From: a virus
IMG/VR virus record: IMGVR_UViG_3300025789_000020
Length of the DNA stretch: 64,000 bases
Strand: one strand, 5' to 3'
Made by a program: the position numbers and the translations under genes. Of this stretch, positions 43,281 through 56,497 are shown in pieces; within the stretch, counting starts at the first letter, position 1; each line of letters opens with the position of its first letter. The notes beneath the pieces are model-generated. The model ran no database searches and was not told the DNA's origin. It worked only from the letters and a program-made list of their open reading frames with translations.

Positions 43281-43318
43281 AGTGTTCGCTCCTGTGTTGT
43301 GTGTATGTGTATATTATA

Positions 43319-43564
43319 CTAGAAGGTGTCGCTCAAGTCAACTACACGACCTTCTGCATCATAGGTCGTGTCATCGATCTCGTATGCGTTTAGGCAGTCG
43401 TTGATGTAGAGTACAGGACCTTCGTCGTACTCACGAACACCTACCATGCTGGCATCTACTTCGCACTCGTATTCTTGATTCATAGCCATCTTTACGGGCA
43501 GGCTAGGGTCTACCTTGTTTAAGATACGGATTAGGTCTGCTACTGTGATTGTGTCTGATCTCAT
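43319..43564 (-). CDS. Hypothetical early protein
   Basis: Own promoter, AGGAA RBS. Confidence 0.7.
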   Translation of the reverse strand: MRSDTITVADLIRILNKVDPSLPVKMAMNQEYECEVDASMVGVREYDEGPVLYINDCLNAYEIDDTTYDAEGRVVDLSDTF

Positions 43565-43644
43565 TGTGTTTCCTTTGTTTCTTTGTTGCTATGTATCTAT
43601 TATACTGCCAAATAATAACCCAGTCAACTGGCGGCTCTTTGGTC

Positions 43645-43784
43645 AAAAAAAAAGCCCTAAACATGCCGGGAGCGAATCGGGCTTACGAGTTTAGGGCTAA
43701 GAAACCTTTGCCGTAGGGACTTGGGTTTCTTGGTGGACTAGTTGCCGGGAGCGAATCGTTGGCTAGTCCATACTACAACAGTTC
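43645..43784 (-). ncRNA. Candidate 3'UTR-derived sRNA: three hairpins plus terminator, two loops antisense to the early-gene RBS
   Basis: Stems TGGACTAG/CTAGTCCA, AAGAAACC/GGTTTCTT, AGCCCTAAAC/GTTTAGGGCT followed by T-run; 16-nt repeat CGATTCGCTCCCGGCA in hairpins 1 and 3. Confidence 0.7.
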
Positions 43785-44648
43785 TTAGCGACTGCCTTTC
43801 ATACATGTTACTTCTGCTACAGCTTCCCACTTGCTAGGGAATGTCATGCGCAGATCTGCAATCTTCAATACCATACGCAGGCTCAGCTCGCGCATCTTAG
43901 CGGCATTAGTCTGTACAAAGTCTACAACCTGTTGCTTGGCAACTTCGTCTAGTTCGTACTCGTCCAACATACCACAGTCACGTACTACCTGTTTGATGCG
44001 GAGGATCTTCTCACGCTCTGTGTCGATAGTAAGGTCCAAATAGTGACAACGTGACTCGATAGCTTCCAAGTGATCCTTCAGCTTCTTTGAGCGCACGTGC
44101 TCGAACTTGATGTTGGTAATAAAGATAGCACCACCTTTGAACTCGAATGAGTTTGGTACGCCTTGATCCTTAAGCAAACGGCTATCCGTATTCCAGTGGA
44201 TCATACGCTTCTTACCTGAGTCCAGAGCAGCCTTTAGAATGTTCAAGCTCAAGTCATCTAACAGTACTGAGTCACAGTCATCGAACACTAGGATACTCTT
44301 CTTGTCTGAGTATTCATACAGCTTTGAGTACAAGCCAAGCGCACTCATTGCACCTTTAACCACTTGATACTTCTTCAACTTGCCGTCTTGCGCAACGTTG
44401 GCAAATACGTCATGCTTTGACAAGACTTTCTCAACACCAAAGCTCTTGCCTACGCCTGGGGGGCCTGTTACGATCATAGCCTTGACATCGCCCTTCTTAA
44501 CAGCACGTGTCATGTCTTCTAGAATCTCAAAGCGATCAGCAAGTCTCTGCATGATCTCTTCATCTGTTTCTGTAAGTACTTTGGTCACTGGCGCCTGCTC
44601 TAGGCTCTTAGTTGTTCCCAAATCCAATGCATTAATAATTCTGCTCAT
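43785..44648 (-). CDS. AAA+-type P-loop ATPase
   Basis: Walker A GPPGVGKS, Walker B LVFDDCD, LKAALD, IFITN, SRC. Confidence 0.85.
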   Translation of the reverse strand: MSRIINALDLGTTKSLEQAPVTKVLTETDEEIMQRLADRFEILEDMTRAVKKGDVKAMIVTGPPGVGKSFGVEKVLSKHDVFANVAQDGKLKKYQVVKGAMSALGLYSKLYEYSDKKSILVFDDCDSVLLDDLSLNILKAALDSGKKRMIHWNTDSRLLKDQGVPNSFEFKGGAIFITNIKFEHVRSKKLKDHLEAIESRCHYLDLTIDTEREKILRIKQVVRDCGMLDEYELDEVAKQQVVDFVQTNAAKMRELSLRMVLKIADLRMTFPSKWEAVAEVTCMKGSR

Positions 44649-44696
44649 AAGTTACGCTCCTATGTGTTGTGTTGAAGTAGTAATTATACTGTCTAA

Positions 44697-44828
44697 TCAT
44701 TGGCCTGTCAACGCCATTTGGACTAATGCCAAACCCGCCAACACTGCCATAAACAAGGCTGTTTCACTGTCAGTGGCCAAATTGACTAGGGATCCTATCA
44801 CAGCGGCTATGATGTAGATCGTCTTCAT
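44697..44828 (-). CDS. Small membrane protein
   Basis: Likely start MKTIYII; hydrophobic; overlap-coupled. Confidence 0.5.
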   Translation of the reverse strand: MKTIYIIAAVIGSLVNLATDSETALFMAVLAGLALVQMALTGQ

Positions 44829-45321: not shown

Positions 45322-45365
45322 AAGTTTCGCTCCTATAATGTGTTGTTGAAGTAGTTATTATACTG

Positions 45366-45656: not shown

Positions 45657-45699
45657 CTTCGCTCCTGTGTGTGTTTAAGCCTTAATTATACAGCCAATC

Positions 45700-46029: not shown

Positions 46030-46065
46030 GTTTCGCTCCTATGTGTTGTTTAAGTCTTAATTATA

Positions 46066-46206
46066 CTACCAAAGGGTAGGGTTGTCAATAACCCTACGAC
46101 GATAGTGGGTAATGCCTTCTTCTACAATGATGGCCACAAGTAGTAGCACTAGGAACGCCCATAAGGGCCATGTGTATAAGAACGCCAGTGTAAGTTGATC
46201 AATCAT
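46066..46206 (-). CDS. 46-aa membrane microprotein (not in ORF track)
   Basis: MIDQLTLAFLYTWPLWAFLVLLLVAIIVEEG...; GGAGG upstream; overlaps previous stop. Confidence 0.5.
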   Translation of the reverse strand: MIDQLTLAFLYTWPLWAFLVLLLVAIIVEEGITHYRRRVIDNPTLW

Positions 46207-46797: not shown

Positions 46798-47050
46798 AGT
46801 GTTCGCTCCTATTTGCTGTTTGTATGTGTATATTATACTGCGGTTTGGGCTGGGCGTCAACCAGTTTTGCCAGTTCTTCAAGGGTAGTAACAAAATGAAA
46901 ACGCCGGGTGTTATTGTAACATTGTTCATAGCCTTGAACGCTGAATTCATACTTGAACAAACGAATGATGTAGTCGTCACCAATGTCCTCGGCAGAGAGC
47001 AAAGGGTAGTCGTACTCTTTGCCAAAATATGTGATAATAACTGTTTTCAT
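46781..47050 (-). CDS. Hypothetical early protein
   Basis: Own promoter and AGGAG; 3' end reads through the next promoter cassette. Confidence 0.6.
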   Translation of the reverse strand: MKTVIITYFGKEYDYPLLSAEDIGDDYIIRLFKYEFSVQGYEQCYNNTRRFHFVTTLEELAKLVDAQPKPQYNIHIQTANRSEHYEQRI

Positions 47051-47247
47051 TTTGGACTCCTGCTTTGTCTTGCTATGTCATTATTATAACTGAATCTAGC
47101 CAAACTGTCAATAACCCTAGAGGATGAAAGGGTATTATTGGTATGCCCAGCGATGCCGTCCATCCCGTCGCCTTCGAATCATAATTATAAGGCATTTTGG
47201 GGATCTAGTCAAGAGAAAAGGTGTTGCGTCGCCACAACACCTTTGAA

Positions 47248-47324
47248 TGGTGGGCCCACCTGGACTCGAACCAGGGACCAAAGGATTATGAGTCCTCTGC
47301 TCTAACCAACTGAGCTATAGGCCC
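47248..47324 (-). tRNA. tRNA with CAT anticodon, most like tRNA-Ile2 (lysidine); Met not excluded
   Basis: GGGCCTA TAGCTCAGTTGGTTAGAGC...CTCATAA...GGTTCGAGTCC...TGGGCCC ACCA; 77 nt with encoded CCA. Confidence 0.93.
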
Positions 47325-50757: not shown

Positions 50758-50819
50758 TTTTCGCTCCTAGTGTGTTTGTGTAAGTCTTAATTATACAGGC
50801 TTTTGGCTAGGCTGTCAAC

Positions 50820-51020: not shown

Positions 51021-51077
51021 AAGTTTCGCTCCTTTTGTGTGTTGATGTTAGTATTATACTAGATCCATGGTGGCCTG

Positions 51078-51637: not shown

Positions 51638-51723
51638 AGTTTTCGCTCCTATTGCTGTTTAAAAATTAATTATAACATAGAGAGCACGTAAAGTCAAAGA
51701 CCCTACGCACTCTAGTGTTGTTT

Positions 51724-52043: not shown

Positions 52044-52527
52044 AACCCTACGCCGCATAGGGTTATGCCATGAATTAGATTGGACTTACGACTCAGGGTC
52101 ACTTGGCCTGAGCTGCCTTAAACTGTTACAGTGAAATGCACTGGAGCTTCCCTTTGTCCAAAGTCTCTGATCGCTCGACACATGAGACTCCACTTCTTGG
52201 CATCTTTTGGAATGGTGTAACTAACAGAACGTCTCCATTAGCCATTTACCGCCGGCGCTACCGTGCTATCCTCACCAAGTTTTGGGCAATGCCTTTCACT
52301 CTAACAGTTAGGAAAAGGCTAAAGGAACCATTGTAGATCTATCTCTACCACAGGGCAACGTCTGCCACTGGGCCTCTACGGTCATTACTGCCTACATACT
52401 CCGCCGCTTCTCCAACACGTCTTAGGTGCCTGTTTCATGCCCCATCCTCAAGCGTATCCGTCGATACTGTCCTCTATCTGGGCGCCTAACGGTGTAGGTA
52501 ACCTTTAACTCTTTCCTAACTGTCTAT
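52044..52527 (-). ncRNA. Candidate large structured non-coding RNA (~480 nt)
   Basis: Consensus promoter with no RBS/ORF behind it; ~22-bp long-range helix 52502-52523/52304-52325 and many nested stems. Confidence 0.7.
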
Positions 52528-52574
52528 GTGCTTATTATAGCACATAGACCTAACCCTGTCAATAACCCTTCAAT

Positions 52575-52781: not shown

Positions 52782-52847
52782 TTTTCGCTCCTTCTTTGTG
52801 TGTCTATGTGCTTATTATAGCACATAGACCTAACTCTGTCAATACCC

Positions 52848-53216: not shown

Positions 53217-53260
53217 GTTTCGCTCCTTTAGTTAACTGTCTATGTGTCTATTATACTGCC

Positions 53261-53944: not shown

Positions 53945-54006
53945 GGTTCGCTCCTTGTTAATATGTCATAATTATAACACGATCTTGTGAGGCTGTCAAT
54001 AACCCT

Positions 54007-54327: not shown

Positions 54328-54396
54328 GTTAGTATTATAGCGCACCCTGCTCAAAACGTCAAGTGGCTAAAAGAACACGACCATTCTGTAGGGGTG

Positions 54397-56395: not shown

Positions 56396-56497
56396 ACTAC
56401 GATTATACACTGTTTGTAGCCCAGAGTCAAGTCCGGCGGGCTTGCGAATGGCGTGACGCAACTAGCTAAAAATTTTTGCCGCTACCGCTTTGCGGAC

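Follow-up and report, generated by a model that had tools for sequence, protein, structure and literature searches.

The 3′ untranslated region (3′UTR) of an AAA ATPase gene in an uncultured, freshwater T4-like jumbo phage contains three adjacent hairpins, two of which carry the octamer UUCGCUCC, the complement of an extended Shine-Dalgarno (SD) tag, GGAGCGAA, that is present in early leaders of the same phage. In related phages, the loop sequence and the early ribosome-binding-site (RBS) consensus co-vary in at least two, probably three, clades. Judged from sequence comparison, the RNA most likely controls early-gene translation, and the reading favoured here, with somewhat better than even confidence, is that a 3′UTR-borne anti-RBS RNA pairs with the tagged early leaders, including that of the ATPase itself, and blocks initiation.

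The ATPase gene and its 3′UTR hairpins

Within the window, i.e. the whole analysed stretch of 64 000 nucleotides, an ORF at 43785–44648 on the minus strand encodes an AAA ATPase similar to T4 NrdC.10, with a TAA stop codon at 43787–43785. Matches of the protein to Pfam AAA families were weak and below the curated cut-offs, and tblastn queries returned nrdC.10 of Aeromonas T4-like phages with 37% identity and PA5oct-like phages with 48% identity. A nucleotide search with the window produced no match among deposited phages. The gene is preceded by a promoter at 44683–44711 (minus strand, TTGACA-N17-TATAAT, 12/12 consensus positions), and the hairpins have no other promoter upstream, the element lacking one of its own.

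The element is located between the stop codon and the intrinsic terminator of the mRNA, and consists of three adjacent minus-strand hairpins and a terminal U9 tract. Hairpin 1 (43734–43770) begins 14 nt past the ATPase stop, folds into an 8-bp stem with a 21-nt loop, CCAACGAUUCGCUCCCGGCAA, and scored 64.9 bits with the covariance model (CM) R1; the first seed, UUCGCUCC, is at 43748–43755. Hairpin 2 (43699–43731) is seedless. Hairpin 3 (43653–43698) is the terminator stem, with an inner mini-hairpin CCG-AUUCGCUCC-CGG and the second copy of the seed at 43669–43676, and the nine U residues of the terminator tail follow at 43644–43652. This arrangement agreed with the original prediction in all coordinates, as did the presence of an identical 16-mer, CGAUUCGCUCCCGGCA, which was counted twice, once in hairpin 1 and once in hairpin 3. 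The further claim that the seed is loop-exposed in both hairpins was upheld in part: the minimum-energy fold of hairpin 3 pairs three seed bases (GCU) in a weak inner helix of 3 bp, which leaves hairpin 1 as the only one with a fully open seed.

The next early promoter is situated directly past the terminator at 43599–43627 (minus strand, TTGACT-N17-TATAAT). The gene that it precedes, starting at 43564 and thus immediately downstream of the element, is one of a small number of early genes whose RBS (AAGGAAAC) lacks the tag, and the duplex energy of this leader with the loops is only -3.7 kcal/mol.

A ribosome-binding-site tag on early leaders

The octamer GGAGCGAA has 13 matches in the window against 0.73 expected, a count reached by none of 100 shuffles. 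Two of these are plus-strand matches in the hairpin loops themselves, and the remaining 11 are on the minus strand in early leaders, at 43285–43292, 45326–45333, 45658–45665, 46032–46039, 46802–46809, 50760–50767, 51025–51032, 51642–51649, 52784–52791, 53219–53226 and 53947–53954. All 11 sit 2–5 nt before an ATG or, at 53219–53226, a TTG start codon, and each is found about 20–25 nt past a consensus sigma70 promoter, TTGAC(A)-N17-TATAAT, with a CA-rich leader in between. The motif search thus returned exactly the list of leaders that had been predicted, and the four expected variants were also present: GGAGCGUA at 44653–44660 (minus strand) as the ATPase's own RBS tag, with a 7/8 match to the seed, GGAGCAGA at about 49167 and again at about 52943, and GGAGCGCA at about 50038. 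The exact complement of the loop sequence (G)AUUCGCUCC(C), AGGAGCGAA, constitutes the extended SD tag, and it is carried by most sigma70-driven early leaders, that of the ATPase included.

Two promoter classes are distinguished, sigma70 early promoters and TATAAATA late promoters. The early block contains about 26 consensus promoters, with GGAGC in 16 of their leaders, whereas none of the 38 large ORFs outside the early block of the window had GGAGC within 24 nt upstream of the start. Counted by strand and by position relative to start codons, the tag was confined to early leaders, in line with its predicted specificity for this block. Most of the tagged genes have no recognised function, and host takeover is their putative role.

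Several features of the early block stand apart from the tagged leaders. Early promoters without a tagged leader occur at 54334–54362 (minus strand) and at 56430, 56955 and 62464; at 54362 the ATG follows the -10 box by only about 6–7 nt, which suggests a leaderless mRNA. The promoter at 52562, in the region 52044–52562 (minus strand), is identical over about 40 nt to the cassette at 52842 and is followed by neither a tag nor an obvious ORF for about 480 nt, making it a candidate source of a long non-coding RNA. A tRNA-Met (CAU) gene at 47248–47324 (minus strand) is located inside the block, and an adjoining consensus promoter at 47184–47212 (minus strand) precedes a G+C-rich, tag-less transcript starting ...GAUUCGAAGGCGACGGG, which may be another small RNA. 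Finally, at 46060–46095 (minus strand), the loop of a PeSL-like stem-loop (GUAGGGUU...AACCCUAC) contains an early promoter's -35 box.

Conservation, folding and strand of the hairpin RNA

Relatives were collected from IMG/VR as uncultured phages with an orthologous ATPase, in records of up to 383 kb. The exact 16-mer was found in 97 viral contigs, and about 60 loci had one to three hairpins 3′ of the orthologous ATPase, with wholly different stems and with loops that retain GAUUCGCUCCC. When 36 distinct homologues of hairpin 1 were aligned without gaps (A1), six stem pairs were paired in 36/36 sequences with 7–18 double changes each, and the covariation score was 0.671 against 0.20 for shuffled alignments (reached in 0/500 shuffles) and at most 0.19 when the partners were slid. 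Loop columns 20–40 (21 nt) were invariant except for one C/U position. The stems hence covary in relatives around a conserved loop, as the original prediction had anticipated. The terminator-type (hairpin-3) units comprised 77 distinct sequences, but the stems were out of register in their MAFFT alignment (A2), and pair counts were taken from A1 only. The inner mini-stem has a compensatory variant, GUG...CAC in place of CCG...CGG.

Of the 185 distinct units in the relatives, 171 had the motif within a stem, for which 156 different arms were counted, and in 135 of these 171 at least six of the eight seed bases were unpaired. When 3′ flanks were swapped as a control, 333/508 combinations still formed at least 6 bp, a figure to which the resemblance of the stems to each other and the inner mini-stem both contribute. 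A loop like that of hairpin 2 (CCAAG..CGGCAA) recurs in a subset of loci (L001, L007, L013, L020 and L037); its form in relatives, CCAA(G/C)(N)CC..(A/C)GGCAA, resembles a seedless copy of the hairpin-1 flanks CCAACG...CGGCAA, and this recurrence without the seed suggests that the flanks may matter by themselves.

Each genome has the element at one locus only. In three large relatives (185–383 kb), the 10-mer ATTCGCTCCC had only two early-strand copies per record, both in the ATPase 3′UTR, and GGAGCGAA was clustered within the roughly 10–12 kb upstream of the element on the same strand. In the loci L062-65 and L070-71, an inserted ORF separates the ATPase from a single seed hairpin, and the tag of their leaders is still that of the window's clade (clade A, see below). 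In L041, L045-L052 and L058-L060 of clade A and in L175-L182 and others of clade B, the ATPase stop codon overlaps with the first seed or directly adjoins it (UAAUGCCCUC; CUGAUUCGCUCCCAG), an arrangement in which a terminating ribosome would cover the first seed hairpin. The element was absent from the cultured distant relatives Aeromonas phage 25 and PA5oct. PA5oct has an ordinary hairpin. Aeromonas phage 25 has at the position of the element, after nrdC.10 (L233:2325-2355, plus strand), a perfect palindromic hairpin, GAGCUGGAGGAAUUCCUCCAGCUC, in which an SD-like GGAGG is paired to an anti-SD-like CCUCC and which is not the element.

The strand of the structure bears on a group of alternatives: a plus-strand RNA whose GGGAGCGAA loops mimic the RBS and act as a decoy, either for a repressor or for the 30S subunit, an operator in double-stranded DNA that works in either orientation, or simply a terminator/promoter recombination cassette of the PeSL type. 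The reverse complement of the hairpins folds about equally well, and neither the folding energies of the two strands (-16.3 vs -17.2 kcal/mol) nor the G-U counts of the minimum-energy stems (242 vs 201) discriminate between them; the succession of terminator, promoter and SD is also that of a PeSL cassette (PMC4122927). The covarying stem, in turn, is informative, since the six inner pairs of A1 include 12 G-U/U-G cells and no A-C cells, which places the structure on the ATPase-sense strand. All 58 covariance-model matches were on the ATPase strand, the U-run is on the minus strand, and no plus-strand promoter for the element was found in the window. Neither an operator nor a cassette requires that the motif be always inverted relative to the leaders and loop-displayed in covarying stems, and PeSL stem-loops do not have a conserved loop. 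These alternatives are therefore highly improbable, and the preference of the original prediction for the minus strand over a plus-strand decoy was borne out.

A scan of Rfam 15 at E≤10 gave sub-threshold matches only and no matching family. The best match, mmgR/suhB (RF00519), reached 20 bits (E = 0.15) against a gathering threshold of 41 bits.

Concerted change of loop and tag between clades

In clade A, the freshwater clade of the window, the tag GGAGCGAA goes with the loop UUCGCUCC. Among 55 non-redundant loci of this clade, TCGCTCC was present one to three times in the 3′UTR and GCCCTC not once, and the leaders had GGAGCG and never [GA]AGGGC. Clade B, which was reached via the ATPase of L079 and is represented by 36 non-redundant loci, is the exact reverse: the tag is GAGGGCA and the loop UGCCCUC, with (A)GAGGGCAA in the leaders and one to five copies of (U)GCCCUC in the 3′UTR. 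No crossing of tags and loops was found among the 36 and 55 loci. All 105 distinct GCCCUC units of clade B had at least four of the six bases unpaired, and 104 were stem-enclosed, by 104 different arms. In clade C, a hairpin with covarying stems comes right after the ATPase stop and displays a 19–28-nt loop of C and U only (e.g. CUCCUCUCUCCUCUCUCCUCC), and the small genes upstream have an RBS of the GGAGAGA type, giving the pair GGAGAGA/UCUCUCC. The prediction that the loop would change in step with the early RBS consensus of each genome was thereby supported, although the number of independent specificity switches is small, i.e. two to three clades with several compensatory positions in each.

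The same correspondence was recovered by an unbiased scan of 46 loci, in which the 3′UTR 7-mer with a complement in most leaders overlapped the loop seed in 46/46 cases. In half of the loci, 0 of about 95 control windows reached the observed count.

A separate feature was seen in the clade B locus L206 (3258-8533, plus strand), where a small hairpin (CAGUGAGCGAACAGCUC) is conserved in every leader and a CU-rich tract precedes the GGAG site. The ATPase 3′UTR of this locus is short and different.

The joint change of loop and tag is the pattern that base pairing predicts, and neither a protein-binding site nor chance resemblance predicts it. A protein of the phage or the host that binds the invariant loops, with the RBS complementarity unused, would explain why the 21 invariant nucleotides outnumber those needed for a seed and why hairpin 2 retains the flanks (CCAA..GGCAA) without one. 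Such a protein would not be expected to follow the RBS consensus through three clades with different loops, each complementary to its own consensus, and we give this explanation very little credence. In the favoured reading of an anti-RBS RNA, the same excess of the 21 invariant loop-1 nucleotides over an 8-nt seed and the loop flanks kept in the seedless hairpin 2 hint at a further partner, either a protein or a special loop geometry, for which this model does not account.

The co-variation also bears on the range of the pairing. The ATPase leader has GGAGCG in 40 of 44 non-redundant clade A loci, and in most cases its clade B counterpart has the B tag. Seeds and target are found on one transcript, and the 3′UTR loops could bind the SD tag at the other end of the ATPase mRNA in an autoregulatory circuit to which the remaining tagged leaders are incidental. 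Such a purely cis-acting element is nevertheless unlikely, as every genome retains the 8–9-nt tag in no fewer than 10 further leaders and, in clade B, it was switched together with the loop on all of them, a change for which a self-directed element has no need. In the window, moreover, it is the ATPase leader whose tag, GGAGCGUA, is imperfect. With its tagged leader, the ATPase may at the same time be self-regulated in cis, by a self-limiting contact of the icaR type that may coexist with pairing in trans.

Pairing energies and proposed mode of action

Predicted duplexes of the loops with leaders were stronger for early genes than for late genes, with median energies of -14.7 and -9.4 kcal/mol, respectively (p = 8e-6). 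RNAduplex gave -15 to -23 kcal/mol for pairing of the loops with the entire octamer, in comparison to -6.5 to -8.6 kcal/mol for the 4–5 nt matched by the 16S anti-SD. The anti-SD sequence of 16S rRNA pairs only with the GGAG core of the tag. Pairing to 16S rRNA as the cause of the CGAA extension was rejected on the basis of these duplex energies and the known anti-SD sequence, in accordance with the original claim that the extension reaches beyond anti-SD pairing. As the octamer pairing exceeds the 16S match in strength, the element is read as an anti-RBS RNA that forms the tail of an early mRNA.

In the proposed course of events, early transcription would yield the ATPase mRNA with the element as its tail, or a tail fragment freed by processing, and a structured, terminator-ended RNA would build up. 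The (G)AUUCGCUCC(C) loops of two hairpins would then pair across the SD of single-stranded, CA-rich early leaders and keep 30S subunits off, upon which the tagged early genes would lose translation together, possibly with faster mRNA decay. A discrete, stable or processed small RNA, pairing in vivo and repression as the sign of the effect are each putative parts of the model. The stoichiometry is unfavourable to it: one locus with two seeds would have to serve at least 15 leaders that are strongly transcribed from near-consensus promoters, and the model hence needs either high stability of the RNA or catalytic decay. Since the regulator and its targets share early promoter timing, any delay must stem from accumulation of the RNA.

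The pairing may also be real with another outcome, in which the SD is shielded from a RegB-like nuclease and early mRNAs are stabilised, or in which a nuclease is guided to them. The pairing evidence is identical for this reading, and early SDs of T4 are known nuclease targets with the extended consensus GGAGRAYARAA (PMC3014915). No homologue of regB (PF10715) or regA (PF01818) was found in the records of three relatives (G001-G003), one of them rated 100% complete, which is weak evidence for absence given that the positive controls were unmatched as well. To our knowledge, occupation of the SD blocks initiation in every characterised case, and an outcome other than repression is accordingly considered quite improbable.

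A wider generalisation of the anti-RBS model is put forward tentatively, with confidence that falls a little short of even. According to it, aquatic T4-like jumbo phages would combine a private SD-extension tag with a multi-seed 3′UTR RNA that silences the early class in trans, in at least three mutually orthogonal pairs (GGAGCGAA/UUCGCUCC, GAGGGCA/UGCCCUC and GGAGAGA/UCUCUCC), as an RNA-only replacement of RegB and RegA. If this is true, a large group of abundant, uncultured aquatic phages bases the timing of its gene control on an RNA reading a phage-private ribosome-site tag, a regulon can be defined in a new way at translation initiation, and the clades offer a natural case of many cis sites and one trans RNA switching specificity together. 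A resident phage could then also silence the early genes of a superinfecting relative with the same tag. The proposal offers a testable account of how the early phase is ended in T4-like phages in which neither RegB nor RegA is detectable. It also supplies orthogonal tag and anti-tag pairs that could serve in synthetic control of translation, as well as a new RNA family with which viral metagenomes can be annotated.

Comparison with known systems

Full-text literature searches returned no description of the element, and its features were compared with those of known RNAs and regulators. The closest architecture is that of the cuckoo RNAs of Alphaproteobacteria (alpha-r14/CcsR/RSs0680), which have two to four adjacent hairpins with highly variable stems and a shared pyrimidine-rich, anti-SD-like loop motif (PMC4615179). 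The phage element similarly has three hairpins, two of them with an identical loop motif, and stems that covary, and the loops of clade C (CUCCUCUCUCC) look especially similar. The cuckoo loop motif is CCUCCUCCC, whereas clades A and B have GAUUCGCUCCC and UGCCCUC, respectively, and CU-only loops are found in clade C alone. Moreover, the cuckoo RNAs are bacterial chromosomal genes, whereas the element is phage-encoded, resides in an mRNA 3′UTR and matches a private extension of phage early SDs. The cuckoo/alpha-r14 family was not among the Rfam 15 matches at E≤10, and the same was true for c4 RNA (RF01695).

In the c4 system of phages P1 and P7, the RNA and its target differ by matched changes between the two phages, and in the element, too, phage RNA loops are complementary to an RBS region and RNA and target change together in relatives. 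The c4 antisense RNA prevents translation of a phage mRNA through short, loop-exposed sequences that pair around its RBS (PMC12197685). It is, however, processed from the same transcript as its single target, icd-ant, upstream of which it is located, and acts in immunity, whereas the element is in a 3′UTR and would be directed at more than 10 promoter-leader units, separate from each other, in place of one co-transcribed operon.

In its logic, the proposed system resembles that of T4, where RegB cuts GGAG in early SDs, including its own SD, and RegA represses initiation (PMC3014915), in that early mRNAs are marked at the SD and inactivated together after the early period. The T4 effectors are proteins, whereas the effector here would be an RNA.

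Among bacterial small RNAs, RsaE/RoxS of Firmicutes have C-rich loops that pair with the SDs of many mRNAs, and 3′UTR-derived RNAs of the CpxQ and SroC type share the terminator of an mRNA and have no promoter of their own. The element is like the latter in being placed between a stop codon and an intrinsic terminator without its own promoter. Whereas these bacterial RNAs address the generic SD of host genes, the seed of the element is directed at an SD extension that is private to the phage and co-evolves with the seed.

In T4-type phages, PeSL cassettes are composed of a stem-loop, a near-consensus sigma70 early promoter, an SD and a start codon, and are repeated in hyperplastic early regions (PMC2839356, PMC4122927), where they have been interpreted as recombination modules. 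The order of hairpin 3, the promoter at 43599–43627 and the gene at 43564 is comparable, as is the array of about 26 promoter-leader cassettes in the window. The PeSL loop is variable and not complementary to the SD, unlike the loop of the element, which is invariant over 21 nt in 36 homologues.

An anti-SD motif in the 3′UTR of the Staphylococcus aureus icaR mRNA pairs with the SD in its own 5′UTR. That is a cis circuit of a single gene, while in the phage the same tag is present on many other transcripts. Assignment of the element to the cuckoo, c4 or PeSL families is precluded by the differing loop motif, the lack of agreement with the Rfam models, the single co-transcribed target of c4 and the non-conserved loop of the PeSLs, and the element is a new variant among base-pairing anti-SD RNAs.
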